DNA of 64,000 nucleotides, from contig NZ_JAQNDN010000024.1 in NCBI RefSeq assembly GCF_028369095.1, forward strand, positions 409,350-473,349, in the 5' to 3' direction. This DNA is from Nannocystis radixulma (GTDB lineage Bacteria > Myxococcota_A > Polyangia > Nannocystales > Nannocystaceae). The position numbers and the translations under genes were made by a program. The notes beneath the pieces were generated by a model that did no database searches, was not told the DNA's origin, and saw nothing but the letters and a program-made list of their open reading frames with translations. Below are positions 6,478 through 64,000 of the stretch, piece by piece. Each line of letters begins with the position of its first letter. The stretch's first letter is position 1.

Positions 6478-7968
6478 ATGCCGCGCCTTTCGGCCGGCGC
6501 ACTATTCGCATTCAGCGCGGCGACGCTGGTCGCCTGCGGCGACGACGGCAGTGATTCCACCGCGAGCGAGACCGACACCGACAGCGAGACCGGCACCGAC
6601 ACGATCGATCCGACCGCCACGACCGGCCCGGGCACCACCAGCACCACCGACCCGACCACCACCGGCGTCCCGACCACCACCGACGACGGCACGGTCACCG
6701 ATCCCACGAGCCCGACGACGACGACGACGACGGCGACCGACACCGACGCGATCACCAGCACGACGACGACGGGGACCGACACGGGTCCGGACACGACGAC
6801 CGGCGACACGACGACCGGCGACACGACGACCGGCGACACGACGACCGAGGGCGACACGAGCACCTCGACGAGCACCGGCGTCGACACGGACACCTCCAGC
6901 ACGGGCGATACCGACACGGGCGGGCCGGTGAAGCCCGACGACTGCGTCGACCTGTCGCTCGCGGACGTCGAGTTGCTCAGTCAGCAGCAGCACCAGTTCG
7001 ACAGCGCGTGGATGGTGCCGCTGGTGCGCTCGCCGGAGTCGCTGGCGAGCCTGACCGGCGACGAGGCGCTGTCCGACCTGCTGCGGATCCTCTTCTCCGG
7101 CGACATCACGGTCGGCGTCCACGCGCTCGACCCCGATCCCAACCACGCGTTCCCCGACTACGTGACGAACTTCGTCACCACCAGCAACGCGGCGGTGACC
7201 CTGCAGGAGGACCTGGTCGACCAGGCCTACACCAAGGTGTTCACGGCCGTGGCGGGCGAGCTCGAGATCTTCGAGCTGGTGTCGTCGCACCAGACCCGCG
7301 GCGTGGTGCGCCACGTCGAGCTGCGGGAGATGGCGCCGAACCCCGACACCGAGGCGCTCGAGCCGGTCGAGGGCGGCGCCTGCTACTGGATCGCGGAGGC
7401 CGAGTACGACGTGCGGCGCGTGAATGGCTGCACGCCGTACACGGACGACGCCTGCCCCGAGGGACAGTTCTGCATGCCGACCAACGCGATCGGCTCCGAC
7501 GGCGAGTGCGTCACCGGCGGGACGAAGCTCGAGGGCGAGGCCTGCGTCCGCCCCGACCCCGAGCTGTGGGACTCCGACTGCGAGCTCGGCCTGCGCTGCC
7601 TCAACCCCGGCGACGGCCCCACGTGCATGAAGGTCTGCGACGTGCTGTCCGACGCGCCCGGCTGCGCCGAGGGGACCCACTGCGGCGGTGGCTACAACCT
7701 GTGCCTCGACGAGGCGGAGCTGCAGAACAGCGGGATCGATCCCGCGCCCGTCGGCGAGCCCTGCGCCGACAACCCGGAGGCCCTCTACTGCGGCGGCGCC
7801 GGCCGGCCGGGGACCTGCTGGGACGACGACGGCAACGGCCCGATGCCGTCGAGCTGCCGGCCCTTCGTGTCGGCGCCCTCGCAGTGCGTCGCGCCGCAGA
7901 CGGCCGGGCACATCGCCTACAAGGACACGATCGACCGCTCGACGCTGTGGTGCTTCGAGCTGCCGTGA
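6478..7968 (+). CDS. Secreted lipoprotein with a Thr/Asp/Gly-rich linker and a cysteine-rich C-terminal domain
   Basis: MPRLSAGALFAFSAATLVACGDDGS lipobox, about 140 aa of T/D/G low complexity, then a Cys-rich globular C-terminus. Confidence 0.7.
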   Translation: MPRLSAGALFAFSAATLVACGDDGSDSTASETDTDSETGTDTIDPTATTGPGTTSTTDPTTTGVPTTTDDGTVTDPTSPTTTTTTATDTDAITSTTTTGTDTGPDTTTGDTTTGDTTTGDTTTEGDTSTSTSTGVDTDTSSTGDTDTGGPVKPDDCVDLSLADVELLSQQQHQFDSAWMVPLVRSPESLASLTGDEALSDLLRILFSGDITVGVHALDPDPNHAFPDYVTNFVTTSNAAVTLQEDLVDQAYTKVFTAVAGELEIFELVSSHQTRGVVRHVELREMAPNPDTEALEPVEGGACYWIAEAEYDVRRVNGCTPYTDDACPEGQFCMPTNAIGSDGECVTGGTKLEGEACVRPDPELWDSDCELGLRCLNPGDGPTCMKVCDVLSDAPGCAEGTHCGGGYNLCLDEAELQNSGIDPAPVGEPCADNPEALYCGGAGRPGTCWDDDGNGPMPSSCRPFVSAPSQCVAPQTAGHIAYKDTIDRSTLWCFELP

Positions 7969-7993: not shown

Positions 7994-8033
7994 GGGACGT
8001 GCTTTTAAGGGCATGTCCCAGGGGGCAGGGATC
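7994..8033. repeat. 14-bp-period palindromic repeat array (about 3 units: gggaCGTGct / gggCATGTccc / ggCAGGGatc) between convergent genes
   Basis: Core spacing is 14 and 14 bp; located between the stop codons at 7968 and 8032. Confidence 0.6.
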
Positions 8034-9316: not shown

Positions 9317-9390
9317 TGAGGATGATATGTCCAAAAGGACATGCGCAAAAAGACATGCATCCGCGCAGGGCGACCCGCGGGGATGCATGT
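9317..9390. repeat. 14-bp-period palindromic repeat array (about 6 units, several degenerate), upstream of the 8609..9106 lipoprotein gene
   Basis: ATG centres at 9317, 9331, 9345 and 9373 with degenerate units at 9359 and 9387; units are gatATGTcc, ggACATGCgc, agACATGCat. Confidence 0.6.
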
Positions 9391-9411: not shown

Positions 9412-10392
9412 TCACTCGCACTGGACGCGGACGTCGACGACCTCGCCCGAGCGCTCCTGGCCCATGCTGCGGTAGACGAAGCGGGCGCGCTCGAGGCCGC
9501 AGTTGCCGCGGTCGTCGCACTCGCGGCGGGTGGTGTAGCCGAGGTCGATCTCGACGATCTCGAAGCTGGCCAGCGGCAGCGTCTCCCAGCCGGTCGAGCG
9601 CCGGTCGCCGTCGTGGTCGGCCCACAGCACGAGCTCGCCCCAGCGCGCGTCGGCGGCGGTGAGCTTGCCGTCGCGGTCGCTGTCGAGCTCGGCGAGGGCG
9701 TCGAAGCCGTTGTGGGGACCTGTCCCCGAGGACATGCGGGTGGCGCTGCCGAACAGCTCGCGGCCGCCGTCGATGCTGCCGTTGCCGTCGCGGTCGAGGG
9801 CGAGCCACGGCGTGGCGGCGCCCGGCCAGTCGGCGCGGGCGCAGCTGCCGGCGCCGCCGTGGATGTCGAAATCGGCCGCGGCCACGGCGGCCGGCGTGAA
9901 CTCGATCGGCTCGCCGAAGCTGAGGACCAGCGGGGTGTTGCAGTCCTCCTGGTTCCACACGCCGCGGCCGTTCTCGTCGGCGACGCAGCCCATGTCGATG
10001 CCGTCGTCCCAACCGCACGACTTGCTCTCGCCCGGCGTGCACTCGTCCTCCTCGACGCAGGCTCCCCAGCGCTTCTCGACGCGGTTGCGCTCGGCCTCGT
10101 AGCTCACGCAGTGCTGGATCCCCTCCTCGCACGGGCGCGTCTCGCCCTCCTCCTCGCAGGTCTCGGTGAGGCAGGCGGTCCAGACGTAGGTGACCTGCTC
10201 GGGCGAATACACGCAGAACTCGACACCCGCGACGCTGTCGAGCTGACAGCCAGCCGGCGCCTCGTCCGAGGCGCACCATTCACCTTCGCGGCCGAAGTCC
10301 TCCAGCTGCGATGCGTGGTCGCCGGGGAGGATCTGGGCGTCGCAGGCGGGGAGGACGAGGAATAGCGTGGATAGGGCGAGCAGGCGGGACAT
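9412..10392 (-). CDS. Secreted lipoprotein with EF-hand-like calcium-binding loops and many paired cysteines
   Basis: MSRLLALSTLFLVLPACDAQ lipobox; DRDGNGSIDGGRELF and DSDRDGKLTAADA are DxDxDG loops. Confidence 0.65.
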   Translation of the reverse strand: MSRLLALSTLFLVLPACDAQILPGDHASQLEDFGREGEWCASDEAPAGCQLDSVAGVEFCVYSPEQVTYVWTACLTETCEEEGETRPCEEGIQHCVSYEAERNRVEKRWGACVEEDECTPGESKSCGWDDGIDMGCVADENGRGVWNQEDCNTPLVLSFGEPIEFTPAAVAAADFDIHGGAGSCARADWPGAATPWLALDRDGNGSIDGGRELFGSATRMSSGTGPHNGFDALAELDSDRDGKLTAADARWGELVLWADHDGDRRSTGWETLPLASFEIVEIDLGYTTRRECDDRGNCGLERARFVYRSMGQERSGEVVDVRVQCE

Positions 10393-11334: not shown

Positions 11335-11588
11335 GGAGATGTCCGAAGGAACAGATCGATTCGAATGGCGGGCTCGGCCGGGTGATGGGCGGCGGACGGG
11401 TGGCTGTCCGAAGAGACATACGTCGAGCCCGGTCCCGCGAACGGCCTGGCCCGAGAGACATGTGATACGACACCGGGCCCGGCGGGGCGGAACGTTCGGG
11501 TGAGGATGGTCGCCGCGAGCGCGGGGAGCCGGCGGGCTGAGGCGCGGCGGATCTGTCTCGCAGGACATGTCCATGCGGACACGTCCCG
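11335..11588. repeat. Three separate 14-bp-period palindromic repeat arrays in the pcm-nadE intergenic region (11335-11370, 11400-11466, 11561-11588)
   Basis: Units include gagATGTCCgaagg, ggCTGTCCgaagagACATACgt...gagACATGTgat and caGGACATGTCCatgcGGACACGTCCcg. Phase is kept within each array but not between them. Confidence 0.6.
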
Positions 11589-13579: not shown

Positions 13580-13601
13580 TCAATGTCTCCGGGGACAGGG
13601 T

Positions 13602-13616
<15 letters not shown>
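13578..13616. repeat. 14-bp-period palindromic repeat array (3 units) spanning the nadE start codon, the 22-bp intergenic gap and the last codons of prs
   Basis: Centres at 13582, 13596 and 13610: caATGTCTcc / ggACAGGGtc / aGGACATGTCCtg. The prs C-terminus ...LAGHVL is encoded by GGACATGTCC. Confidence 0.65.
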
Positions 13617-14545
<929 letters not shown>

Positions 14546-14549
<4 letters not shown>

Positions 14550-16345
14550 GCGGCCGGGGAAGAGTACCCGGCGGCGAGCGCGTTGGCGACCTCGGTATAG
14601 GCGTAATCGCTGACGCGCTCGTCGATGCGCATGGCGAGCAGCGCCTTGCTGCGGCAGGTGGCCGCGCCGAAGAACGCGCGATCGTCGGCGCACGCGCGCG
14701 CGAGCGCCGGCTCGGTCGACCAGCGCTCGAGGTGATGCTGGAAGATCCGCCGCACCTCCGGCCACAGCTGCGCCGGGTCGGGGCCGCCGGCGTCGTCGAT
14801 CCAGCCGATCACCGCCGCGAGGTGAGCGTGCACCAGCGTGTGCATCAGCTTGCCCTGGGCCTCGGCGAGCTCGTGCGTGATCACGAACGAGTCGGCCGCC
14901 AGCGCAGGGGTGTGACCGCCGGCGGCGAGGCGGCCGCGGTGGAGCCGCACGCCGCCGAGATCGCGGACGAGGAAGCCGCGCGGACGGCCGCCTGCGTGCA
15001 CCAGCAGGGTGTTCTGCAGGTGGGCCTCGAGGGCGACGCCGTGGGCGGTGAGGAGGCGCAGGAGCGGCGGGACCAGCTGGTCGAGGTAGTCGGCGAAGAA
15101 GGCGGCGAGGCGAGCGCGCTGGTCGCCCGGGTAGGCGGCCGCGAGCTCGCGCAGCAGCAGGTCGCCGCCGGGCCGGCGCTCGCCGAGGGCGGCGCAGACG
15201 ATGACCTCAGGGACATGTTCTACGGGAAATGTTTTGAGGGACATGTCGTTCGGGGCATGTCCCAGAGGAGGAGCGGGATCGCGGGCGACCTCGCGAGCGA
15301 GCGGGGCGAGGTCGGGGCGGACGACCACGCCGAGCTGGCCGGCGACGGCGCCGTGGCGCGGGTCGAGGCCGGCAGCGGCGAGGTCGGGCTGGACCCGCAG
15401 GCCGCGGCGGGTGTGCGGATCGGCGGCCTGGATCTGGCGCAGCAGCGCGGCGATCGGCGGGCCGTTGTGGACGGAGGCGGGCGAGACCTGCCGCCGCGCG
15501 CTGGTGGTGTGGATGTCGACGGCGAGCTTGAGGTGCAGCGCAGGCGCGGCGAGGGCGACGGTGCGCAGGCTGAGCAGGGCCCGCGCCGGCAGCGGCGCGA
15601 CGGCGACGGGCCGCACGCGGTCGCCCCACAGCGGGCCGAGCAGGCGCGGCAGCCGGCGCAGCTGGAGGGCGTGGACCGGCAGGCGGACGTACCCGGGCGC
15701 GGGGGCGGGGAACAGCTCGCGCGAGATGTCGGCAAAGACAGCCTCGGCGGCGAGCAGGGCGTCGCCGCGGGCGAGGTCGACGGCGTGGACGGGCGCCTGG
15801 GCCAGCTGATCGGGGCCGTGGCGCAGGTTCTCCCACGCGCGCAGGCCGAGCCGCGTCTTGCTCATGGGGTGCCAGGGGTGGCCGTCGACGACCAGGTTCT
15901 CGGGGTCGAGCGGGCCGCGCCAGGGATGACCCTTGGCGCATGTCCGTTCGCGCAGGTCGGCGGCGACGCGGGCGAGCGCGAGGTTCCAGCGGCTGTCGCC
16001 GAGCTCGCGGGCGAGGCGGGCGCGCACCGGCGGGGCGAGGGCGGGGAGCAGGCGCGGGAGCAGCTCGGCGAGCTCGGGCAGGTCGCTGGCGTCGAGGTCG
16101 GCGGCGTGCAACTCGAAGGCCCGCAGGCGCCGCAGGGGGAGGCTCAAGGAGCATGTCTGAAGGGACATGTCTCGAAGCTCGCTCGTGACGAGCCGCTCGC
16201 GCGCGCAGGCGAGGACGAGCCGGGCGCCGATCGCCTGGCCGGCGCGGCGCCAGTGAGCGAGGAGCGCGGCGGAGTCGAGGCCGGCGCCGAACGCGGCGGG
16301 GACGGCCCGCCCGGCGAAGGCGAGGAAGCGCTCGAGCTCGGTCAC
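14546..16345 (-). CDS. IucA/IucC-family synthetase (NRPS-independent siderophore synthetase-like ATP-dependent amide ligase) with a FhuF-like C-terminal region
   Basis: Family motifs [38 protein letters not shown] and [10 protein letters not shown]...FLVRDLGG. The length (599 aa) and motif spacing match AcsD/DesD-type enzymes. Two repeat arrays lie in-frame inside this CDS. Confidence 0.75.
15196..15262. repeat. 14-bp-period palindromic repeat array (5 phased units) inside the IucA/IucC CDS, read in-frame
   Basis: ATG centres at 15200, 15214, 15228, 15242 and 15256. The stretch encodes ...[20 protein letters not shown]... on the minus strand. Confidence 0.65.
16149..16173. repeat. Two tandem palindromic units (gagCATGTCTgaag-ggACATGTCTcg) inside the N-terminal coding region of the IucA/IucC gene
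   Basis: Centres at 16153 and 16167; the stretch encodes ...[12 protein letters not shown]... Confidence 0.6.
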
Positions 16346-16418
16346 GCCGCGAAAGGTAGCGCGCGGACCCGGGCGACGAAAGTTCGCCGCGCGCCGTCCG
16401 GCTGCCGAAGATCGGGTC

Positions 16419-17126
16419 TCAGCCGGCGCGGTAGAGGGCCACGCCCAGCTCGCCGAGCATGAGGGCGGCGGAGAGCAGGAGGATCCAGGCGATCCAGCGG
16501 CGCAGGCTGGCCTCGTCGAGGCGGCCGGTGCGGCGGGCGCCGAGGTTGGCGCCGAGCAGGGTGAGCGGGGTGACGATCGCGAAGGCGCCGAAGTGGACCT
16601 GTCCTTCGAGGAAGGTGGCGACGCCCGCCGACAGCCCGGTGACGGCGCCGATCGCCATGTTGGTGCCGACGGCCACGGGCGGCGGGACGCGGGCGTAGCG
16701 GATCATCGCCGGCAGGCGCAGGCTGCCGAGGAGGAGGCCGACGAGGCCCGAGATCGCGCCGAGAGCGGCGCCGACGACCATCTCGGCGGCGACGGCGAAG
16801 CTGCGTGAAGAGACATGTTCCGAAGAACCAGTGGGCTCGGGCCGGCGCCGCAGCATGCTGACGCCGGTCAGCAGCAGGACGAGGGCGATCGCGGCCTTGA
16901 GCACGCGGGCGTCGACGCTGCCGGCCCAGCGCGCGCTGAGGAAGGCGGCCAATGCCGAGGGCGCGCCGACGGTGGCGAGCAGCCACGGGCTGACGCGGCC
17001 CTCGCGGGCGTGCCGCAGGGTGCCGGTGAGGGTGCCCGCGGTCGAGATGGCGAGGCTGGTGGCGGCGCCGATCACCGGGCTGCCGAGGACGTAGACGAGG
17101 AGGGCCACCCGCAGCTGACCGAGCAC
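16419..17126 (-). CDS. TSUP/TauE/SafE-family membrane transporter (4+4 TM sulfite-exporter family)
   Basis: 235 aa, hydrophobic and Gly/Ala-rich TM helices with a central basic loop; repeat units lie in the central loop (...SSEHVSS...). Confidence 0.65.
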   Translation of the reverse strand: MLGQLRVALLVYVLGSPVIGAATSLAISTAGTLTGTLRHAREGRVSPWLLATVGAPSALAAFLSARWAGSVDARVLKAAIALVLLLTGVSMLRRRPEPTGSSEHVSSRSFAVAAEMVVGAALGAISGLVGLLLGSLRLPAMIRYARVPPPVAVGTNMAIGAVTGLSAGVATFLEGQVHFGAFAIVTPLTLLGANLGARRTGRLDEASLRRWIAWILLLSAALMLGELGVALYRAG

Positions 17127-17425
17127 GAGCCCGACGGTGGCGCCGATGTAACTGAGGCCGAAGGAGACCAGCGCGATGAGCGCCAGCGCGAGGATCTCGG
17201 TGGAGCGCAGGCGGCGACGCTAGCACGCGGCCGAGCAGGCAGGCGAGGCAGGGCGCGGGAAGTGGGCGAGCGCGATGCGGCTGCTGCCGTCGGCGGGCTC
17301 GCGGCGCCGGCGTGCGCATGCGAAGTGGCGACGCGCGATGAATTCGCCTTCAGGCGGCGAGCGGCGGCGCGGACAGAAGTTCGCGGTGATGCACCCGCGC
17401 ACCATGGGCGGCTGTCCGGGCGGAC

Positions 17426-18286
17426 ATGGTGTCGGCGACGAAAGGCGCGGGCGGCTTGACAGGCGGCGGCGCGGAGGCGGACGCTCGCGGCGGCGTGACG
17501 GATCGCGGGGATACGGCGGCTGCGGCGGAGGAGCTCGCCACGGCGCCTGCAGGGCCGTCTCGGCCGCGCTGGGTGGTGATCCACTGGACGCCGGAGGCGC
17601 TGGGGTTGGTGCGGGCGATCGCGGCCGCGGAGCCGCGCCCGGCGCTGACGCTGATCGGGCCGGCGCCGGCGGACGAGGTCGCGGCGGCGCTGGCGAGCTT
17701 GCCCGAAGGACATGTCGAAAAGTACTGGCAGGGATCGGCGAGCGGCGGGGTCGAGGCGCTGGCGCGCTTCTTCGCCGACACGGCTCACTTGCCGACGGCC
17801 GACGCGATCGTGGTGCTGCCGCTGCGCGGGCACGGTGAGACCGACGCGTTCTCGCGCCTGGTGTGCACGGCCATCCAGCGGGCGTGCAAAGGCCGGCCGC
17901 CGCACGTGGTGGTGGCGGTCGAGGACCCGGAGGCGACCCACGAGTTCGAGGGGCTCGGGGTGGCGACGATCTTCTACCCGGGCTTTTTGCGCGCGGCCCT
18001 GCTGGCCCACGCGTGCGTCGACCTCGGGGCGTTCCGCTTCATGCTGGCGCTGCTCGGCGGCCGCCTGCGCGTCGAGACCTGGCCGGTGCCGCCGGAGTTG
18101 CGCGCGGGGACGTTCCGCGAGGCCTGCATCGAGATCGAGGTCGACCGCCGCGGCCGCCCGGTGACGCTGATCGGGCTGTTCGCGCCCGGCGAGGGCGCGG
18201 AGCCGGCGATGCTGCTGAGCCCGGCCCCGGGCCGACCGCTGCGCGACGCCAGCGCGCTGCTGGTGCTGACGGGAGAGGCCGAGTGA
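17426..18286 (+). CDS. RCK (TrkA-N/TrkA-C-like) regulatory domain protein, a putative gating subunit for the downstream channel
   Basis: Rossmann-like segment RWVVIHWTPEALGLVRAI...AIVVLPL plus a TrkA-C-like C-terminus (...CIEIEVDRRGRPVTLIGLF...ASALLVLTGEA). The start is uncertain. Confidence 0.45.
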   Translation: MVSATKGAGGLTGGGAEADARGGVTDRGDTAAAAEELATAPAGPSRPRWVVIHWTPEALGLVRAIAAAEPRPALTLIGPAPADEVAAALASLPEGHVEKYWQGSASGGVEALARFFADTAHLPTADAIVVLPLRGHGETDAFSRLVCTAIQRACKGRPPHVVVAVEDPEATHEFEGLGVATIFYPGFLRAALLAHACVDLGAFRFMLALLGGRLRVETWPVPPELRAGTFREACIEIEVDRRGRPVTLIGLFAPGEGAEPAMLLSPAPGRPLRDASALLVLTGEAE

Positions 18287-18306: not shown

Positions 18307-18373
18307 CGGCCTGTGCGCCGGGGCATGTTTAAATGGACATGGCTGATCGGGCCTGTCCTCGTGGGCATGTTCA
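18307..18373. repeat. 14-bp-period palindromic repeat array (5-6 units) covering the start codon and the whole signal-peptide coding region of the channel gene
   Basis: Centres at 18311, 18325 (the ATG start), 18339, 18353, 18367 and a degenerate unit at 18381. The array encodes MFKWTWLIGPVLVGMFIQSG. Confidence 0.65.
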
Positions 18374-20683: not shown

Positions 20684-21838
20684 ATGTCGCCGTCTCGTCG
20701 TGTCGATCGTCGCGCCGCCGTCGCGTTCGGGTCCGCGCTCGCCGTGAGCTGCTACCGCGGATCGGGGATGGCCGAAAGTACAGATTCGACGGCGACGGTG
20801 GCGAGCGAGGCGACGACGGCGAGCGAGACGGGCGCGGCGAGCGGGCCGACGACGACGGCGACGACGAGCACGGGCGACGCGCCGACCACGGCGGGGCCGA
20901 CCGTGACGAGCCTGCCGGAGCCGACCGGTACGGGGCCGGACGAGACGTCGACGTCGACGGGGCCGATCGACACCGGGCCGCCGGACAGCACGGGCACGGC
21001 GGGCGAGACCATGGGCGAGCCGGTCGACCCGGTCGCGGCGGTGTGCGAGCGCTGGGCGGCGGACCGAACGGACATGTCTGAAGGGACATGGAGCGGGGCG
21101 GTCGCGGGCTGCATGGCCGGCGACACCGGGGCACCCGGCCGCGACAACGCGCTGCGGCTGGTCAACCTGTACCGCTGGCTGGCCGGGCTGCCGCCGGTCG
21201 GCCACGACGCCGCGCTCAACGCGAAGGCGCAGCAGTGCGCGCTGATGATGCACGCCGAGGGGGCGCTGTCGCACGACCCCGACATGATGTGGGCCTGCTA
21301 CACGGCCGACGGGGCGCAGGCGGCGATGAACAGCAATATCTCGTCGACGCCCGGGGTGGTCGCGGTCGACCTCTACATGGTCGACCCGGGCAACGCGACG
21401 ACCTTCGGCCACCGGCGGTGGATCCTCTCGAGCGCGCTGGGGCCGATCGGGCTCGGCTCGACGTCGGTCAACTCGTGCATGTGGGTGATCGGCGGCCAGG
21501 GCGGCGGGGGCGCCGAATGGACGGCGTGGCCGCCCCCGGGGGTCGTGCCGCTGGCGGCCATCCACGTGCCCGAGGTGCCGTGGGCCAACGTCGACGAGAC
21601 GGGGTGGACGATCCAGAGCAACGACATCGACGTGGGCGCGGCGCAGGTGACGATCCGCGAGAACGGGGTCGACAAGCCGGTCAAGCTGACGACCCTGCAG
21701 GGCGGGTTCGGCTCGAACAGCGCGATCGCCATGACGCCGCAGGGATGGGTCAGCGAGGCCGGCAAGACCTACACGGTGCAGGTGAACGGGGTGCCCCAGC
21801 CGTTCAGCTACGACGTGCAGGTGGTGGCTTGCCCTTGA
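20684..21838 (+). CDS. Secreted lipoprotein with a Thr/Ser-rich linker and a C-terminal CAP/SCP/PR-1-like domain
   Basis: LAVSC lipobox; LVNLYRWLAGLPPV...GHRRWILSS resembles the CAP-domain signature. Confidence 0.65.
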   Translation: MSPSRRVDRRAAVAFGSALAVSCYRGSGMAESTDSTATVASEATTASETGAASGPTTTATTSTGDAPTTAGPTVTSLPEPTGTGPDETSTSTGPIDTGPPDSTGTAGETMGEPVDPVAAVCERWAADRTDMSEGTWSGAVAGCMAGDTGAPGRDNALRLVNLYRWLAGLPPVGHDAALNAKAQQCALMMHAEGALSHDPDMMWACYTADGAQAAMNSNISSTPGVVAVDLYMVDPGNATTFGHRRWILSSALGPIGLGSTSVNSCMWVIGGQGGGGAEWTAWPPPGVVPLAAIHVPEVPWANVDETGWTIQSNDIDVGAAQVTIRENGVDKPVKLTTLQGGFGSNSAIAMTPQGWVSEAGKTYTVQVNGVPQPFSYDVQVVACP

Positions 21839-21890
21839 GGCATGTTTGAGAGGGCATGTCCGTTCGGGCATGCCCTTCAGGGCCTGGTCG
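21838..21890. repeat. 14-bp-period palindromic repeat array (4-5 units) filling the whole convergent intergenic gap
   Basis: Centres at 21842, 21856, 21870 and 21884: gaggCATGTTtg / agggCATGTCcg / cgggCATGCCct / agggCCTGGTcg, with degenerate flanking units overlapping both stop codons. Confidence 0.7.
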
Positions 21891-25106: not shown

Positions 25107-25168
25107 GAGGATGTCCCGCGGGACATGTCGTCCGTGGTGTGGACGACATGTCCTCGGGGACAGATCGA
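25107..25168. repeat. Palindromic repeat array (about 4 units, one spacing irregular) between convergent gene ends
   Basis: gaggATGTCCcgcg, GGACATGTCGtccg, ggACGACATGTCCtcg, ggACAGATCgat; centres at 25111, 25125, 25148 and 25162. Confidence 0.6.
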
Positions 25169-27268
25169 TCAGCCGGGCTCGATCGAGCAGTAGCCGCCGA
25201 TGCAGGTGCCTTCGCCCTCGCAGCAGGCGGCGTCGACCTCGCACGAGTCGCCGATGTGCGAGCAGGTGTCGGGGACGTCGGAGCACACGGCGGGGTCGCC
25301 GTAGCAGAAGCCGTCACAGCAGTCGAAGCCGGCGTTGCAGCCCTGGCCGACCTGCTTGCACGGCGACAGCGCCCACTCGCCGCGCATGTTGGAGTTGTTC
25401 AGCTCCTGGCCCGGGAGCCAGAACGCGGGGTGGCTGGGGTCGGTGCCGGGGGTGATGTTGCCGTCGATGGCGGTCACCCACAGCTGCTTGCGCCGGGTGT
25501 TGGGGTTGGTGTCGGTCAGCGTGTTGCCGTACTTGCGCTCGGAGCCGATGATGAGCCACGAGTAGCCGCCGACCGAGACCGGCAGGAAGGTCGGCTCGTA
25601 GGTGGTCTGGTCCTGGCCGGGCTCGACGATGCCGAAGCCGTTGGCCTTGTCGAGGCGGACCACCGAGGAGCCGTCGAGGTTGGTCAGCCAGACCTCGGTG
25701 ACGGCGGCGCGGGTGCGGGCCTGGTTGAGGCGGTTGAACGCGATCCACTGCGAGTCGGGCGCGAAGGTCGGGAAGGTGGTGGTGGTGAGCCCGGGGATCT
25801 TGTCGACGATCTGGTGGGCGTTGGCGAACGAGTTGGTCATCAGATCGACGTCGACCAGCCACAGCTCGCTGTTGTTGAAGTCGAGCCAGTTGCCGTCGGT
25901 CTTGCGGGCGAACGCGAGCTTGGTGCCGTCGCCCGACCAAACCGGGTGCTGCGGCTTGCCGCCGGGCACGGTGAGCTGCGCCAGCGGGGTCGCGTTGTCG
26001 AAGGTGGTGAGCTTGAGCGCGCCGGTCTCGTCGGACTGGCCCCACACCACGTGCGAGCCGTTGGGCGCGATCGCCTGGAAGCCGGAGGCGAGGTCGGGGA
26101 AGTAGAGCACCTGGCCGGAGGCGGCGTCGATGGTGCTCCACGGGCTGTAGCCGCCGTGGAAGCTGGCGGCGATCCGCGAGCCGTCCTTCGACACGCTGTG
26201 ACAGGCGACGCAGGCCACGCCCGGGGGCTTCTGAATGAACGGCTCGGGCGCGGTGGCGCCGATGTTGAGGCGGACGACGTTGCCGTTGTTGACCTCCCAG
26301 TAATAGACGGTGCCGGTGAGGTTGGCCGGGGCGATCGTCCAGGTCTGGGTCTTGGCGAGGTAGGCCTTCTGGCCGTCGTAGCGGGCGATGTCGAGGTGGA
26401 CGTCGCCCTCGGTCGAGGCGGTCAGCTTGAGCCAGATGTCGGTCGGCAGCGCCGGGAAGTCGAAGCGCGAGGGCGGCGGGACGTTGTGGTAGCCCTTGTA
26501 CTCGAAGAAGTCGCTGTAGGCGTGGACGTAATAGAGGTCGTTGGCGCCGCCGCCGTCCCATTGAATGGTGGGACCGATGAGGCCGCGCGGGAACACGGTC
26601 TTGTCGTATGGATAGAGCAGGACCATCGACGGGTCGGGGTCGACCGCCATCGGGAACAGGTCCTTGGTCTCGGGCGGGACCGGCACCGGCTCGGCGTTGA
26701 ACACCAGCTTGACGGTGGCGTTGGTGGTCGCCGCGGGCAGCTCGCCGGTGCCCTCGAAGGTGACGGTGCCGATGCCGCCGGCGAAGCCCGTGGCCGTGAG
26801 CATGCCGGACAGGTCGCCGATGCCGGCGAGGTCGAGCTTGTCGTACGACCAGGTGCCGGTGACCGGGACCTTGATGCCCTTGTCGGTGATGCCGGTGGCG
26901 GTGTACTGGGTCGCCGCTGGGATGTTGCCGTCGACGACGGTGATGATCGCGTCGAGCGGATCGATCTCGATCGAGACGACCATGCCCGGGTCGTCGCCGG
27001 TGGTCGCGGTGGTCGCCGGATCGACGGTGGTGCCGGTCGAGGTGCCCGTGGGCGGGTTCTCGGTCGGATCGCCGACGGTGCCGGTGCCCTGCGGCTCGGT
27101 GGTCGTCGGCGTCGACGTGGCGGTGGTGTCGGTGCCGGCGGTGGCGTCAGTGGCGGTGACGGTGGTGGAGGCGGAGATGACGGAGCTGTCGGTCTCGGCG
27201 GGGCGATTGGGGTCGCCGCAAGCGAGCAGGCCCGCGGCCGAGAGGAGCGACACAAAATTCCAACGCAT
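25169..27268 (-). CDS. Large secreted lipoprotein: Thr-rich linker, TolB/WD40-like beta-propeller region and a Cys-rich C-terminal knot
   Basis: MRWNFVSLLSAAGLLACGD lipobox; the C-terminus CKQVGQGCNAGFDCCDGFCYGDPAVCSDVPDTCSHIGDSCEVDAACCEGEGTCIGGYC. Confidence 0.7.
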   Translation of the reverse strand: MRWNFVSLLSAAGLLACGDPNRPAETDSSVISASTTVTATDATAGTDTTATSTPTTTEPQGTGTVGDPTENPPTGTSTGTTVDPATTATTGDDPGMVVSIEIDPLDAIITVVDGNIPAATQYTATGITDKGIKVPVTGTWSYDKLDLAGIGDLSGMLTATGFAGGIGTVTFEGTGELPAATTNATVKLVFNAEPVPVPPETKDLFPMAVDPDPSMVLLYPYDKTVFPRGLIGPTIQWDGGGANDLYYVHAYSDFFEYKGYHNVPPPSRFDFPALPTDIWLKLTASTEGDVHLDIARYDGQKAYLAKTQTWTIAPANLTGTVYYWEVNNGNVVRLNIGATAPEPFIQKPPGVACVACHSVSKDGSRIAASFHGGYSPWSTIDAASGQVLYFPDLASGFQAIAPNGSHVVWGQSDETGALKLTTFDNATPLAQLTVPGGKPQHPVWSGDGTKLAFARKTDGNWLDFNNSELWLVDVDLMTNSFANAHQIVDKIPGLTTTTFPTFAPDSQWIAFNRLNQARTRAAVTEVWLTNLDGSSVVRLDKANGFGIVEPGQDQTTYEPTFLPVSVGGYSWLIIGSERKYGNTLTDTNPNTRRKQLWVTAIDGNITPGTDPSHPAFWLPGQELNNSNMRGEWALSPCKQVGQGCNAGFDCCDGFCYGDPAVCSDVPDTCSHIGDSCEVDAACCEGEGTCIGGYCSIEPG

Positions 27269-28432: not shown

Positions 28433-29626
<1,194 letters not shown>

Positions 29627-30312: not shown

Positions 30313-32403
30313 TTAAAAATCGGGGCAGGCGGTGAGGCTGGAGATCCAGGCGTCGATCAGCGCCACACCGGCCTCGTCGACGACGGCGGAGCCGACGGCG
30401 GGCATGCGGGTGCTGCCGAGGCTGTGCATGCGGGCGGAGAGGATCGAGCGCGCGGGATCGCCGGGGGTGAGCAGGGCGGCATCGGCGAGGTCGAGGTCGC
30501 CGGAGCGGGGCGGGGCGTCGCACAGGCCCATATTCCCGACCGGGACACCGGCGCGCAGGTCGATGCGGGCGCGGCCGCTGGGGGCGTCGGGGCGGTGACA
30601 CTGCGAGCAATTGGCGTGGAGGTAGGCGCGGGCGCGATCGGCGAGCGGGGCGTCGCCGTCGATCGCGGGCAGCGGCGCGACGTCGGGCGGCGCGGGCAGG
30701 ACCCCTTGCGCGCCGAGCAGGAACAGCTGATCGACCGGCTCGCCGGCCTCGTCGGGGACGTCGCGGGCGAGCTGCGCCAGCTCGAGGCCGAGCGTGCGGC
30801 CGGCGGCGCGCGAATGGCAGTACATGCAATCGGCGCGGTCGGGGAAGATCCACGTCTGCTCGCCGACGACGCGCGTCTCGCCGCCCTCGAGCAGGCGCGC
30901 GTCGCTGCCGTCCTGCTCCCACGCGTAGCTGTAGCCGGCCCAGTCGCCGTCGCCGTGGTGGACGAACAGGCGCGTCTCGACCGGGGCGCCGGCCAGCTCG
31001 AAGGTCTTGACGACGACGCTGCCGGTCGGCAATGCGAGGTCGTCGTCGTCGCCGACGGTGGCGACACGGCCGGGCGGCAGGAACATCCAGCGCGTCTTGT
31101 CGGCGCCGTCGGACCAGAACGGGACGTTGATCTCGTAGGCGACGGCGCCGGCGGGCGGGCGCCGCGGGTCGGCGACATCGAGGCAACCTGTCTCCGAGAG
31201 CATGTCCGGAAGGCCCGGTCCGGTCGGCGGAGAGGCGGCGCGCAGGCGGTAGATCCCGCCGTCGTAGGCGAGGGCGTACAGCTCGCCGGCCTGGTCCTCG
31301 GCGAAGGCGACGGTGCCGCGCACGCCGGCCTCGCCGAGCACCACCGGCGCCTCGCCGTCGCGGACGCCCCACAGGGTCTGGCCGTAGAAATCGGTGTAGA
31401 CGAACAGGCCGGCGAGGTCGGGCAATTCGGCGCCGCGGTAGACGAAGCCGGCGATCACGGAGGCGCCGCCGGTGTTGCGGTACTGGGCGACGGGATCGAC
31501 GAGGCCGGCGCCGGCGCACGTGTCCTGGCCGAAGCAGTCGCGGCCCTCCTTGATGTTCCAGCCGTAGTTGCCGCCGAGGACGATCCGGTCGACCTCCTCC
31601 CACACGTTCTGGCCGACGTCGCCGGCCCACAGGTCGCCGGTGGCGCGATCGAAGCTGAAGCGCCACGGGTTGCGCAGGCCGAGCGCGAAGATCTCGGGGC
31701 GACCGCCGCCGCCCGCGTAGGGGTTGTCGGGCGGGATGGCGTACGGTTCGCCGCCGCCTGTGTCGAGGCGGAGGATCTTGCCGAGCAGGCTGTCGGGGTT
31801 CTGGGCGTGGCCTTGCGGGTCGCCGCCCGAGCCGCCGTCGCCGAGGCTGAAGTAGAGGTAGCCGTCGCGGTCGAAACCGAGGCCGCCGCCGTTGTGGTTG
31901 GTGTAGGGCTGATCGACGACGAGGATCGGCTCCTCGCTGGCGAGGTCGAGGGTGAGGCCGTCGTCGCCGGCGAGGAAGCGAGACACGCGCGACTCGAACA
32001 CGGGCCCGCCGGGGCCGGTGTACGACAGGAAAACCTCGCGGTTGTCGGCGTAATCTGGATGAAAGGCCATGCCCAAAAGGCCAGCCTCGCCGCCGACGAC
32101 GATCTGGTCGGACAGGTCGGCGAACACGGTCGGGGCGGGCGGGTCGGCGACGTTGGGGAAGGTGTAGATCCGTCCGGCCTGGGTGGCGACATACCAGCGA
32201 TCGCCGGTCGGGGCGAGCTGCAGGTCGACGCCGCCGTCGACGGCGACGGAGGGGAACACGCGCGCGAGCTCGACGACGTCGCGGGACGGCGGGCGCGGGA
32301 GGTTCAGGCACTCCGGACCGCCGGCATCGCCCGAGCTGCAGGCGCCCGCGAGCGAGGCGACGAGCGCGGCCGGTCCGAACCTACGCGTAAGTTTAAAGAG
32401 CAT
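30313..32403 (-). CDS. PQQ-dependent soluble sugar (glucose/sorbosone) dehydrogenase beta-propeller fused to a C-terminal di-haem cytochrome c region; lipoprotein
   Basis: GGNYGWN and HNGGGLGFD are SGL/sGDH-family motifs; the CxxCH motifs are CMYCH and CSQCH; N-terminus LAGACSS. Confidence 0.75.
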   Translation of the reverse strand: MLFKLTRRFGPAALVASLAGACSSGDAGGPECLNLPRPPSRDVVELARVFPSVAVDGGVDLQLAPTGDRWYVATQAGRIYTFPNVADPPAPTVFADLSDQIVVGGEAGLLGMAFHPDYADNREVFLSYTGPGGPVFESRVSRFLAGDDGLTLDLASEEPILVVDQPYTNHNGGGLGFDRDGYLYFSLGDGGSGGDPQGHAQNPDSLLGKILRLDTGGGEPYAIPPDNPYAGGGGRPEIFALGLRNPWRFSFDRATGDLWAGDVGQNVWEEVDRIVLGGNYGWNIKEGRDCFGQDTCAGAGLVDPVAQYRNTGGASVIAGFVYRGAELPDLAGLFVYTDFYGQTLWGVRDGEAPVVLGEAGVRGTVAFAEDQAGELYALAYDGGIYRLRAASPPTGPGLPDMLSETGCLDVADPRRPPAGAVAYEINVPFWSDGADKTRWMFLPPGRVATVGDDDDLALPTGSVVVKTFELAGAPVETRLFVHHGDGDWAGYSYAWEQDGSDARLLEGGETRVVGEQTWIFPDRADCMYCHSRAAGRTLGLELAQLARDVPDEAGEPVDQLFLLGAQGVLPAPPDVAPLPAIDGDAPLADRARAYLHANCSQCHRPDAPSGRARIDLRAGVPVGNMGLCDAPPRSGDLDLADAALLTPGDPARSILSARMHSLGSTRMPAVGSAVVDEAGVALIDAWISSLTACPDF

Positions 32404-33137: not shown

Positions 33138-33210
33138 GTGGCTGAAGGGACATGCCCCTGAGAGCCTGTGCTCAGGGGCATGGCTCCGAGGACATGTCCG
33201 AATCGCCACC
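33132..33210. repeat. 14-bp-period palindromic repeat array (5-6 units) between convergent genes, overlapping the last 8 codons of the methyltransferase gene
   Basis: Centres at 33150, 33164, 33178 and 33192 exactly 14 bp apart; units are ggacatgccc, gagcctgtgc, gggcatggct and a perfect ggacatgtcc. Confidence 0.7.
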
Positions 33211-40181: not shown

Positions 40182-40258
40182 GGATATGCATGAACGAACA
40201 TGTCGAGAAAGGCATGTCAAAGAAGACATGTCTATGAGGACATGACCGAACAGTCTCC
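40182..40258. repeat. 14-bp-period palindromic repeat array (5-6 units) downstream of the GFA gene; a second irregular cluster lies at 40413-40468
   Basis: ATG centres at 40186, 40200, 40214, 40228 and 40242: atATGCATga / gaACATGTCg / agGCATGTCa / agACATGTCt / agGACATGAcc. Confidence 0.7.
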
Positions 40259-42933: not shown

Positions 42934-43018
42934 GGACAGTGTCCGAGCGGACAGGTCTATCGAGGCATGTCCGATCAGACATTGTCCATTCGGACATGTC
43001 CTTTCATTGTGACAGGAA
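42934..43018. repeat. 14-bp-period palindromic repeat array (6-7 units) between convergent genes
   Basis: gGACAGTGTCCgagcGGACAGGTCtatcgagGCATGTCCgatcaGACATTGTCCattcGGACATGTCCtttCATTGTGACAGG; it overlaps the stop codons at 42931 and 43004. Confidence 0.7.
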
Positions 43019-52282: not shown

Positions 52283-53245
52283 TCAGCCCGGGATGACGAA
52301 GCACTGGATGCTGGTGTCGATGCGGAAGTTCGACTGGGTGGTGTGGCGCTCGGCGTGGAAGATGTCCATCGGGTAGGTGCCGCCGAGCTGGATGCCGAAG
52401 AAGCCGGCGTTGGCGTCGAGGTCGATCGAGTCGCTGAGGGCGCCGTGGACGCCGCCGAGGTCGATGGCGAGCTTGCCGTTGATGAACAGCCACAGGTCGT
52501 CGTCACCGGTGAATGTGAACACCTCGCCGCCCGAATAGGTGAACTCGGTGTGGATCTCGGTGGTGAAGTGGAAGTTGTGATCCTCGCCCTGGTTGCCCCA
52601 GCCCTGGTCGTCGATCGGGAAGAAGTTGTTGTTCTGGTAGGTGTATTGACCGGGCATGACCTCGGTCAACATGATCTCGATCTCGAACGATTGGTTGACG
52701 TCGGGGACGTCGTTGTACCACTGGGCGAACTCGGCCGGGCCCGTGGTGACCGAGGTGCCGCCGGCGTGGGCGTAGACCGGCTTCTTGTCGGGGCCGAGCT
52801 GCGACTGGACGATGCCGTCGAGGGTGCCACCGTAGCTCTCGAAGTCGGGGTGGCTGTTCTTGAAGTCGCGCACGACGGCCTTGAGCACCGAGGTGCACTC
52901 GGGCGGCGGGTCGCCGGTGGTGGTGGTATTCGTGGTGGTGGTCGTCGTCTCGGTGGTGGTGGTCGTGGTGGTGGTCGTGTCGGGCCCGGTGGTGGTCGTG
53001 GTGGTGCCCGGGTCGACGGGGCCGGTGGTGGACGTGCCAGTGGTCGGCGCGTCGGTGGTGGCGTCGGTGCCGGTCGGGTCGACCTCGGTGGTGGTGCCGG
53101 GCTCGGTGCTCGCGGTGCCGGGCGTGACGGTGATGTTCGTCAGGCTGCCGGCGCTGTCGCTGGTGCCCTGGACGTAACCGGAGTCGCCGCAGGCGAGCAG
53201 GACGAGGGCCGAGAAGGGGAAGCTGTATTTGAAGACATGTCGCAT
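52283..53245 (-). CDS. Secreted lipoprotein with a poly-Thr linker and a C-terminal fibro-slime/PA14-like domain
   Basis: MRHVFKYSFPFSALVLLACGDSG lipobox. The start codon region ATGCGACATGTCTTC is itself one palindromic unit. The domain shows DFKNSHPDFE and GDDDLWLFINGKLAIDLGGVHG. Confidence 0.7.
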   Translation of the reverse strand: MRHVFKYSFPFSALVLLACGDSGYVQGTSDSAGSLTNITVTPGTASTEPGTTTEVDPTGTDATTDAPTTGTSTTGPVDPGTTTTTTGPDTTTTTTTTTETTTTTTNTTTTGDPPPECTSVLKAVVRDFKNSHPDFESYGGTLDGIVQSQLGPDKKPVYAHAGGTSVTTGPAEFAQWYNDVPDVNQSFEIEIMLTEVMPGQYTYQNNNFFPIDDQGWGNQGEDHNFHFTTEIHTEFTYSGGEVFTFTGDDDLWLFINGKLAIDLGGVHGALSDSIDLDANAGFFGIQLGGTYPMDIFHAERHTTQSNFRIDTSIQCFVIPG

Positions 53246-62619: not shown

Positions 62620-62686
62620 TCCGTGGAGATGCTGAATGTGTTTGAATGGACAGGTCCAGAAGGACCTGGTGCAGAGGCCATGTCAG
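62620..62686. repeat. 14-bp-period palindromic repeat array (about 5 units) in the 5' region of the permease gene
   Basis: Centres at 62624, 62638, 62652, 62666 and 62680: CCGTGGAG / AATGTGTT / GGACAGGTCC / GGACCTGGT / GGCCATGTCA. Confidence 0.55.
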
Positions 62687-62716: not shown

Positions 62717-64000
62717 TCATGGGGCGTCCTCCGCGAGCACTTCGACGATGCCGCGGCTGCCGTCGACGCGCAGGCGCTGGCCGGACTTGAGGCGGCGGGT
62801 GCCGTCGCCGACGCCGACGACGGCGGGGATGCCGTACTCGCGGGCGATGACGGAGCCGTGGGTCATCATGCCGCCGACGTCGCACACGAGGCCGGCGGCG
62901 TGGACGAACAGGGGGGTCCAGCCGGGATCGGTGTAGGGGGCGACGAGGATCTCGCCGGCGCGCAGGACCTGGGCGGCGGGGTCGAGGACGACGTGGGCGA
63001 TGCCCTCGACGACGCCGGCGCTGGCGCCGAGGCCGGCGAGGGCGCCGGGCGGCAGGTCCTTCGGGACAGGTCGCTCGGGGATCTCGCCCTCGCTGGTGAC
63101 GAGCAGCGGAGGGTTGGTGTGGCGGGCGTGTTCGAGGTCGGCGCGACGGGCCGCGATCGTCGGGCGCGGGTCGAGGGCCCGCGGATCGTCGGCGAGGGCG
63201 ATGAGCTCGTCGTAGGTCAGGAACCACACGTCGTCGACGGCGTCGAGCCGGCCGGCGCGTACCAGCGATTCGGCGGCGGCGCGCACGGTGGCGCGCACGT
63301 GCTCGAAGCACTGCACGAACAAATACTTGGGATGCTCGCGCACGCCGAGGCAGTGGCGCACGCACTGGACCTGACGGCGCACCCACCAGCGCGCCGGGCC
63401 CGGCGTCGTGGCGGTGACGAGGCGCTGCGCGGCGGCCTCGCCCTCGGCCTGGAGGACGGCGAAGTGCTCGCGGTGCTTGCCGGGGGCGTCGCCGTGGCTG
63501 GCCATGCCGCGGATGCTGGTGAGCAGCAGGGTGGGGTCGTCGGCCCAGCGCGGGCGGCCGATGTCGATCTCGGCCTGACCGCGCATGCCGAAGCGGGCGA
63601 GGAAGGCGGTGAAGGCGTCGACGAAGGCGGGACCGCCGGAGAGGTCGCGGAGGGCCCGGAGGTCGCCATTGCGGACGTGGGCGAGGGCGGCGAGCAGCTC
63701 GGGGTGCGGGCGCACGAGGTCGGCGAGGTCGCCGACGCGGAGGTCCATCTCGGTGGTGACGTTGCCGACGAGGCCGCGCTGCAGGGCCTCGACGTCGCCG
63801 GCGCGCGCGGTGCCGGCGAAGCGACGACGCAGGCGGCCGAGGCTGAGCATGCCGCTGACGAGGCGCGGGGCGATCTTCGGCATGACGGTGAAGACCGTGG
63901 TCAGCTCGTGCCGGGCGGCGCGCAGGCGGGCGGCGCCGGGCGGCTGGGCGGCGACGGCGGTGCGGAAGGCGGCGACGCGATCGGCGATCAGGCGATCGGC
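62717..64000 (-). CDS. PEP-utilising enzyme (PEP synthase / rifampicin-phosphotransferase-like family); C-terminal part with the mobile His domain, the N-terminal part lies beyond the window end
   Basis: GGMMTHGSVIAREYGIPAVVG is the PEP-utilisers mobile-domain signature. The reading frame stays open past position 64000. Confidence 0.7.
   Translation of the reverse strand, partial: ADRLIADRVAAFRTAVAAQPPGAARLRAARHELTTVFTVMPKIAPRLVSGMLSLGRLRRRFAGTARAGDVEALQRGLVGNVTTEMDLRVGDLADLVRPHPELLAALAHVRNGDLRALRDLSGGPAFVDAFTAFLARFGMRGQAEIDIGRPRWADDPTLLLTSIRGMASHGDAPGKHREHFAVLQAEGEAAAQRLVTATTPGPARWWVRRQVQCVRHCLGVREHPKYLFVQCFEHVRATVRAAAESLVRAGRLDAVDDVWFLTYDELIALADDPRALDPRPTIAARRADLEHARHTNPPLLVTSEGEIPERPVPKDLPPGALAGLGASAGVVEGIAHVVLDPAAQVLRAGEILVAPYTDPGWTPLFVHAAGLVCDVGGMMTHGSVIAREYGIPAVVGVGDGTRRLKSGQRLRVDGSRGIVEVLAEDAP

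Follow-up and report, generated by a model that had tools for sequence, protein, structure and literature searches.

The IucA/IucC-family siderophore synthetase gene of Nannocystis radixulma carries, inside its reading frame, a run of short palindromes spaced exactly 14 bp apart, which raises the question of what is being kept there: a peptide, a mobile palindrome or a nucleic-acid signal. We analysed the 64,000 nt around it (assembly GCF_028369095.1, contig NZ_JAQNDN010000024.1, positions 409,350 to 473,349; hereafter the window) and related genomes, and found that the run belongs to a family of 14-bp arrays that is real, apparently undescribed and specific to Nannocystis and close relatives, a variant of the small dispersed palindromic repeats. 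What sets it apart is that the unit is itself a palindrome, that the 14-bp phase is exact, that all three frames are translated and that copies inside genes are conserved at the nucleotide level. Our explanation, to which we give a probability of about 0.55, is a repeat of the Nannocystis lineage with a habitat like that of repetitive extragenic palindromes (REP) and bacterial interspersed mosaic elements (BIME), acting through hairpins at RNA or transcript ends and served by a sequence-specific factor.

The siderophore synthetase gene hosts the following sites.

14546..16345, minus strand: coding sequence of the IucA/IucC-family siderophore synthetase (IucA/C), 599 amino acids, Pfam-supported, host of three array sites.
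15197..15262, translated on the minus strand (20 amino acids): five-unit phased array in the inter-domain linker.
15936..15945: weak unit GCGCATGTCC, read R-T-C, its ACA codon kept in all species.
16149..16172: two-unit array at the N-terminus (3 and 1 mismatches), peptide RDMSLQTCS.

The five units of 15197-15262 start at 15197, 15211, 15225, 15239 and 15253, exactly 14 bp apart, and read in order GACGATGACC / GGACATGTTC / GGAAATGTTT / GGACATGTCG / GGGCATGTCC, with 4, 1, 3, 1 and 1 mismatches to the palindrome GGACATGTCC. The first-pass annotation of this DNA had described five phased units in frame inside the gene, and we found this to be so: the spacing is exact, and the G+C content of third codon positions (GC3) follows one unbroken frame on either side of the array. 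All of its quoted translations were correct, as was its recognition of DMS, GHV and TCP as the three reading frames of the core. The long open reading frames (ORFs) that it relied on are true genes; in this one, the Pfam domain IucA_IucC spans residues 149-350 and FhuF residues 415-577.

The repeat unit consists of the 10-bp palindrome GGACATGTCC and a 4-nt spacer of variable sequence and fixed length, so that the period is exactly 14 bp. In the window, 25 sites match GGACATGTCC with no more than one mismatch where 2.2 are expected, a count reached by none of 100 shuffles, and the gaps separating core-like sites there were 14 (10 times), 28 (4 times) and 42 (3 times), never 13 or 15. Doublets of adjacent units with at most 1 and 3 mismatches occurred 14 times at a spacing of 14 and not at all at spacings of 11-13 and 15-17, and shuffles yielded about none. 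Hence, the repeat and its 14-bp phase are real. Near-perfect units occur at about 0.4-0.5 per kb of Nannocystis DNA on both strands, about 11-fold over expectation, and arrays comprise 1-10 units of 14 bp without fixed ends.

We then took one genome per species from 185,579 species and scanned them for the perfect doublet GGACATGTCC-N4-GGACATGTCC. Of the 91 stretches found, 88 were in Nannocystis, Nannocystaceae or Myxococcales assemblies or metagenome-assembled genomes (MAGs); the three non-myxobacterial matches were rejected as chance, their loci holding no other unit or just one. Viral contigs gave one perfect doublet only (IMG/VR UViG_3300005675_000065, locus L098, 8925-8948). Hence, the family has no link to phages. 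The viral contig itself has 66% G+C and three near-perfect units in 9 kb; it may come from a phage or prophage whose host is related. No Rfam covariance model matched anywhere in the window at gathering thresholds, and in the papers searched we found no publication on this repeat or on such repeats in Nannocystis or myxobacteria. In the literature, GGACATGTCC appears only as a half-site of the p53 response element, the consensus of which is RRRCATGYYY. Since the palindrome fits this consensus exactly, the matches are all p53 papers, a coincidence that implies no bacterial p53.

The linker array has a traceable history. In an alignment of 29 homologues, peptides of the DMS, T(F/C)P and H(A/V)P types lie between the two domains in all Nannocystis proteins, at variable length. 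The window protein, for which a look-up by exact sequence gave no record, is 97% identical to that of Nannocystis sp. SCPEA4 and 75-80% identical to those of N. exedens, N. punicea and N. pusilla; relatives at 63-67% identity have just one 14-residue period in the linker, and distant Nannocystaceae homologues have no array peptide and a linker about 20-25 residues shorter. Relative to solved structures, the Nannocystis linker is longer by 31 residues (AsbB) and 18 residues (AcsD). Hence, the array lengthens the protein locally, contrary to the earlier statement that it adds no noticeable length. The AlphaFold2 model made from this alignment has a mean predicted local distance difference test score (pLDDT) of 90.9, and its sole segment below 50 is residues 359-376, the array peptide. 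The linker array is thus a lineage-specific, copy-variable addition in a disordered inter-domain loop.

Copy number differs between species (about 4 to 7 units): the window has 5 units, N. exedens 6, N. punicea 7, N. pusilla 6-7 and the 63% relative about 4. A 42-bp block of three units is duplicated in three species, marked by the CATTCCC variant common to units 2 and 5, and N. pusilla reads the same units in a shifted frame that is restored downstream. Hence, the inherited entity is the DNA unit and not the peptide. The triplet code is visible in the linker array as 42-bp steps and compensating small indels, so the earlier idea that copy number is free of codon triplets survives only in part, the visible duplication unit being the three-unit block. 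Steps of 42 bp are also possible outside genes, because N. bainbridge (locus L066, 6596-6731) has a higher-order repeat with a 42-bp period, in which at least three perfect doublets are set apart by 14-nt filler of unrelated sequence.

The clade at about 50% identity has a separate linker insertion about 10 residues downstream, and its DNA holds a perfect GGACATGTCC. One member is MAG GCA_964268365.1 (locus L096, 11190-11260), with its own motif-bearing insertion (SSDMSLSPALHVREDRSL) at a different point. This MAG has perfect cores elsewhere in genes and few arrays after genes, a pattern by which the habitat of the motif may differ between genera.

Beyond the siderophore synthetase, we found 20 arrays with three or more units in long ORFs whose GC3 is 0.85-1.0 to either side of the array. 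Seven are in genes with Pfam hits. Six of these fall outside the domain envelopes, among them one in a sigma-54 activator, where the array separates the AAA lid from the HTH_8 domain; the exception is in MurE, inside the middle domain. The MurE site has identical length in all 19 aligned homologues, and its DNA has 2-3 units at one site and in one register in lineages of 70-100% identity and 0 units at 64%. The two-unit array at the N-terminus of IucA/C, which had been reported at 16149-16173 and is real, lies in a predicted beta-hairpin (pLDDT 94) of the same length as in outgroups or shorter than there. Hence, arrays also arise by length-neutral replacement, and intragenic arrays have taken two routes: replacement of about 24-40 bp without a change in length, and array expansion in loops. 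They are found mainly in linkers and disordered loops and are read in all three frames, giving a 14-residue period DMS..T(F/C)P..(G/E)H(V/A)P. The orthologue alignments that had been suggested to tell insertion from replacement therefore found both, and the expected placement in loops and linkers holds for the disordered linker array (pLDDT <50) and not for the N-terminal site.

The units are conserved as nucleotides. A syntenic block of the PCMT, NAD synthetase, PRPP-synthetase-like, IucA/C, TauE, hypothetical protein, NMT1_3 and CAP genes has arrays at the same places in N. exedens, N. punicea and N. pusilla, and motif positions are conserved across 4-6 genomes. Background GC3 of the genes is about 0.95-0.98. 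Over 2,707 columns with identical amino acids, mean GC3 was 0.977 outside units and 0.58 inside, and conserved A/T-ending codons made up 11 of 28 columns inside units versus 29 of 2,679 outside, many of the 29 being unit-adjacent spacers. This test is partly circular, and a second one defined units in the window only: A/T-ending codons of the window kept A/T in the orthologue in 35 of 44 cases inside units (80%) and 59 of 182 outside (32%; p=1.5e-8), a large effect from species comparisons that are not independent. The rare codons CTT, ACA, TGT and TTG of the array at 16149..16172 are likewise kept in four species. Hence, intragenic units are constrained as DNA or RNA and not merely tolerated, and we infer that the selected property of these copies is a nucleic-acid motif and not the peptide.

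Most of the family lies outside genes. We determined the context of 314 arrays, taken from the window and from 88 loci of Nannocystis type (about 0.9 Mb of loci). The loci, not the window, had been chosen for a perfect doublet, and genes were called with a simple position-specific G+C model. We found 205 arrays to be intergenic and 95 to be in coding sequence, which makes up 82% of the DNA. Array density per kb was 4.4 in convergent gaps, 1.2 in same-direction (tandem) gaps, 0.63 in divergent gaps and 0.16 in coding sequence, about a 10-fold enrichment between genes, and stop codons were far closer to the arrays than start codons (median distance to the nearest, 18 nt vs about 310 nt). In the unselected window, 11 of 21 arrays are intergenic against an intergenic fraction of 14.5% (p=5e-5), and three more touch a stop codon. 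Arrays occupy 7 of its 12 convergent gaps, the array-less ones all being <40 nt, and none of its divergent gaps has a unit with two or fewer mismatches. Hence, from this enrichment and the proximity to stop codons, the family is primarily an extragenic 3'-end element, and the inside of genes is a minority habitat. The arrays at gene ends and in gaps of the window are these.

7995..8018: two-unit array in a 63-nt convergent gap.
9323..9358: intergenic array with AAAA spacers, on the 3' side of gene 9412..10392 (minus strand).
11549..11586: intergenic array of three units, on the 3' side of the NAD synthetase stop at a distance of about 10 nt (30 nt to its midpoint); 15-bp hairpin.
13593..13616: array over the PRPP-synthetase-like stop codon and the 22-nt gap before the NAD synthetase gene.
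18321..18372: four-unit intercistronic array, from the hypothetical-gene stop to the NMT1_3 start; same position in three other species.
21838..21889: four-unit array filling a 53-nt convergent gap.
25107..25167: two adjacent doublets in different 14-bp registers; counted to its midpoint, the nearer doublet is 14 nt beyond the stop of 25169..27253 (minus strand), on the 3' side.
33148..33199: four-unit array over a convergent gap and stop codon; nested hairpin, -41.5 kcal/mol.
40182..40247: five-unit A/T-rich array in a convergent gap, 6 nt past a stop codon.
42949..43001: 72-nt convergent gap filled by an array that slips register once, by 1 nt.
62648..62685: intergenic array of three units on the 3' side of 62717..64000 (minus strand).

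The array at 13593..13616 is also present in N. exedens, N. punicea and N. pusilla. By eye, a further weak unit lies towards the NAD synthetase start, and the likely ribosome-binding site and the ATG fall within 13580-13616. Translation of NAD synthetase could be coupled or gated by a hairpin at this place, comparable to the intercistronic repeats of mycobacteria (mycobacterial interspersed repetitive units).

Since GGACATGTCC is its own reverse complement, neighbouring units are both a direct and an inverted repeat. Two adjacent units (the 24-nt doublet) form a stem of 10-12 bp with a 4-nt loop, an identical hairpin on both strands, and arrays fold with z-scores of -2.3 to -4.6, one array strand reaching just -1.6. 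The flank directly outside the doublet covaries (175 Watson-Crick pairs vs 128 expected) and the loop positions do not, which supports selection on the hairpin. Among the array spacers, sought for UUCG and GNRA tetraloops, no spacer dominates, and within single units (self-hairpin) we found no covariation. On the sense strand, G-U and A-C combinations numbered 72 vs 40 in tandem gaps and 82 vs 86 in arrays of coding sequence.

Extragenic arrays would, in our explanation, be hairpins acting at the level of RNA or transcription, end-of-transcript elements usable from both strands, and two options for their role would be termination without a U tract or protection of 3' ends. Because the arrays keep mainly to transcribed extragenic DNA, hug stop codons, favour convergent gaps and are rare in promoter-only gaps, a transcript-end hairpin is their most likely role. 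Clusters of hairpins near stop codons have been reported to terminate transcription without poly-U tracts (PMC8355165). The arrays resemble such hairpin-cluster or I-shaped terminators and SPRITE-type repeats in having one or more G+C-rich hairpins within about 80 nt past the stop, with poly-U dispensable (PMC8355165), and in being usable from both strands between convergent genes. They differ from ordinary terminators, which have no single genome-wide sequence and no conserved recurrence inside coding regions. A putative sequence-specific factor would bind or propagate the units; such a factor, or a copying process, is implied because pairing alone cannot explain one word in one register at thousands of sites, nor the conserved lone units. 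The simplest route to expansion would be slippage between units that are complementary to themselves, with the reading frame as a filter.

The genomic distribution resembles that of REP/BIME (including REPINs) of Enterobacteria and Pseudomonas, because it is concentrated in transcribed extragenic DNA right 3' of stop codons, above all in convergent gaps. Both are short palindromic repeats in hundreds to thousands of copies, lie after genes and between the genes of operons, are rare in divergent promoter gaps, and form clustered arrays and hairpins at mRNA 3' ends; the 24-nt doublet is within the palindrome size of about 20-40 nt. The unit here differs in being just 10+4 bp and itself a perfect palindrome, which makes the tandem arrangement an inverted one, and in its exact 14-bp spacing with free spacer sequence. 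The GTAG/CTAC foot of the REP hairpin adjoins only 4 of 253 arrays, and conserved, translated intragenic copies are common among the Nannocystis arrays. No RAYT gene, the transposase that accompanies REP, came to light, no search aimed at a Y1 transposase having been made in the loci.

Several results weigh against this explanation. No U tract follows the arrays (none of 46 arrays in tandem context has TTTT in the next 14 nt, where the T fraction is 0.16); hence, they do not count as canonical intrinsic terminators. Where an array lies in a short intercistronic gap (13593-13616 and 18321-18372), a full terminator would be awkward. At the stem centre compensatory change is lacking, CCTG variants being rarely matched by CAGG in the partner unit; hence, pairing alone does not explain the retention of this word. 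The G-U/A-C asymmetry is weak, as the unoriented convergent control deviates too (136 vs 180), the context statistics stem from loci selected for a doublet and from a GC3-based gene caller of our own, and the transcript-end role is read from position and foldability only. Single intragenic units, which are incapable of the doublet hairpin, are also conserved, and recognition of double-stranded DNA fits them better. Hence, the REP-like, transcript-end explanation leaves real room for a model of double-stranded-DNA binding sites and for a drive like that of the cyanobacterial highly iterated palindrome (HIP1) or of uptake sequences (PMC5861425, PMC4390886, PMC2346458).

In the binding-site model, which is unlikely although it stands up best among the rivals, the units are double-stranded-DNA sites where a dimeric protein of this lineage binds, such as a nucleoid-associated or topology-handling factor that acts where supercoils build up from convergent transcription, and the intragenic copies are true binding sites under selection. 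A 14-bp spacing would rotate successive dimers by about 120 degrees, and three units (42 bp) make four helical turns; among near-perfect units, a spacing of 42 is indeed commoner than one of 28 (24 vs 19). The perfect 10-bp palindrome in strict register with free spacer sequence, the lack of covariation within units and at the stem centre, and the nucleotide-level retention of lone intragenic units all suit this model, and HIP1 is a precedent as a conserved iterated palindrome proposed for chromosome structure (PMC5861425). A simple DNA-site model does not predict that arrays hug stop codons (median 18 nt), which a transcript-end role does; doublet flanks covary like a stem, and we found no candidate protein.

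A bolder and rather doubtful reading is that the palindrome is a genome-wide 'address' read and written by a putative Nannocystaceae-specific machinery, which would make it a new kind of motif-propagating system and not a REP-like relic. Templated conversion or hairpin-primed copying would overwrite short coding and non-coding tracts in the fixed 14-bp register, and length-neutral arrays in essential genes such as murE would thereby be accounted for. Complementarity between units would then allow pairing within or between transcripts, linking gene-internal sites to 3'-end arrays.

Less probable again is molecular drive, in which GGACATGTCC would be a DNA uptake sequence (DUS) or uptake signal sequence (USS), the target of an orphan methyltransferase, or the product of a repair bias as proposed for HIP1, and copies would build up by substitution where proteins tolerate them, doubling as hairpins after genes. 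The DUS/USS of Neisseriaceae and Pasteurellaceae often form inverted pairs that double as terminator hairpins after genes. Like them, the Nannocystis palindrome is a lineage-specific word (9-12 bp in DUS/USS) that is strongly over-represented and lies at coding positions tolerated by the protein (PMC2346458); such intragenic placement biases are known for uptake sequences (PMC2346458). HIP1 (GCGATCGC) is likewise a short palindrome many-fold over-represented in one lineage, and as here it occurs within and between ORFs at sites conserved between genomes beyond expectation (PMC5861425, PMC4390886); it has been tied to methylases and transformation efficiency (PMC4390886; bioRxiv 10.1101/2024.09.10.611283). 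Drive would also fit the 11-fold excess on both strands, the family-level taxonomic restriction, the in-situ, length-neutral appearance in MurE and at the IucA/C N-terminus, and the conserved sites inside ORFs. However, exact 14-bp tandem phasing and a 10-fold intergenic bias are foreign to DUS, USS and HIP1. DUS/USS are not palindromes and not tandem-phased, most USS are intragenic, and their link to competence is established; HIP1 forms single sites with kb-scale periodicity and no 14-bp tandem arrays, is not concentrated after stop codons and has known cognate methyltransferases, none being known for the Nannocystis palindrome, for which no search for one was made. The doublet's presence in just one viral contig also speaks against drive.

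The first-pass annotation had likened the in-frame arrays to the Rickettsia palindromic elements (RPE). In such a reading they would be selfish mobile palindromes, RPE-like or akin to miniature inverted-repeat transposable elements (MITE), which enter genes and persist only where the added peptide does no harm. RPE are a precedent for palindromic repeats in frame within unrelated genes that add a fold-compatible peptide (PMC10969869), and the IucA/C linker array resembles them, adding about 20-25 residues in a disordered loop of one lineage, with a second, independent insertion point in the sister clade and with six of the seven larger intragenic arrays outside Pfam domains. For the family as a whole the likeness fails, and we consider this explanation quite improbable. 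Each RPE is a discrete element, about 100-150 bp long, that encodes a single conserved peptide in a single frame; here there are 14-bp units in three frames and variable number, most copies are extragenic, and the host is free-living with a genome of about 11-13 Mb. RPE/MITE would have defined ends, terminal inverted repeats and target-site duplications; the arrays form no discrete element with ends and have no clear target-site duplications, 4-mer duplications being only slightly in excess (43 vs 30), which degenerate units could explain; the rarity of the GTAG/CTAC foot (4 of 253) also counts against mobility. Because spacers differ between units, the arrays are not recent copies of one master element. 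Many copies are length-neutral replacements, MurE and the IucA/C N-terminus being unchanged in length, and conservation of nucleotides across species is not expected of junk.

Finally, chance or codon-usage convergence, or a selected DMS/TCP/GHV peptide in place of a DNA repeat, is already refuted despite the residues of short one- and two-unit sites being conserved among Nannocystis orthologues, as no shuffle matches the counts and other spacings yield none, the same units dominate non-coding gaps, all three frames are used with frame shifts between orthologues, and the arrays use rare A/T-ending codons.

The remaining intragenic sites of the window are short.

16811..16820: single unit AGACATGTTC in the central loop of a TauE-family protein, gene 16419..17126 (minus strand), read EHV.
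17708..17717: single unit in the hypothetical protein 17573..18286 (plus strand), read GHV.
21070..21093: two-unit array upstream of the CAP domain, gene 20798..21838 (plus strand), 1 and 3 mismatches, read DMSEGTW.
31184..31207: two-unit array between the GSDH domain (residues 63-349) and the cytochrome c region of 30313..32403 (minus strand), 4 and 2 mismatches.

Of the further in-frame arrays that had been proposed, the one at 21070-21094 is real, and its DNA is nearly invariant across four species over 24 nt, spacer included. The one at 31184-31208 is probably real, in a class with a background of about 10%. At 16811-16835 only the first unit stands (2 mismatches, its CAT codon kept in four species), the neighbour having 5 mismatches. 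The host gene there is 16419..17126, whose orthologues carry PF01925; ORF 16342..17319 was rejected as TauE, since it has no Pfam match and GC3 favours the other frame. The array claimed at 60857-60881 is within background, its best matches (3 and 4 mismatches) lying 12 nt apart and not 14. The unit at 17708..17717 is a perfect GGACATGTCC in three other species.

Other observations concern the neighbourhood. The TauE, IucA/C, PRPP-synthetase-like and NAD synthetase genes are syntenic across Nannocystis and relatives, unusual partners for an enzyme of the siderophore-synthetase family, and IucA/C overlaps the downstream PRPP-synthetase-like gene by 4 nt (14546-14549; 16342-16345 is also listed). 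In N. pusilla (locus L095, 1996-3151, 3409-5690 and 11905-12848), the CAP, NMT1_3 and PRPP-synthetase-like genes are split in the assembly, probably by assembly indels and not by biology. Array slippage was considered for the CAP frameshift and rejected: a 2-nt gap lies about 20 nt upstream of the array, not inside it. Since it lies outside the array and several genes are split in this assembly, the break is no evidence of slippage. A 69-bp tandem repeat at 54091-54220 (1.9 copies, 91% matches) is unrelated to the 14-bp family. Low-complexity tandem repeats at 6565-6847, 28652-28832 and 52916-53095, with periods of 3 to 33 nt (ACGAGC, GGT, GACACGACGACCGGC and similar), probably encode Thr/Asp/Gly/Ser-rich linkers and form a separate repeat class.

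If the REP-like, transcript-end explanation is true, Nannocystis has a single 10-bp palindrome in thousands of copies held to a rigid 14-bp register. This would be a natural experiment in constraint at two levels, as one sequence marks gene ends and, where it is embedded in genes, is translated and conserved as well. Constraint on the nucleic acid can be read here with unusual ease, because background GC3 is so high that nearly all conserved A/T-ending codons of the genes examined lie in or next to units. Because GC3 falls inside arrays, they can mislead gene callers on start sites; they are also potential sites of assembly error and slippage, and a cheap sequence marker for Nannocystaceae in metagenomes. 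For linker evolution, the repeats can lengthen protein linkers by 14-residue steps. A factor that recognises or spreads the word would address a question that HIP1 has posed in cyanobacteria for decades.

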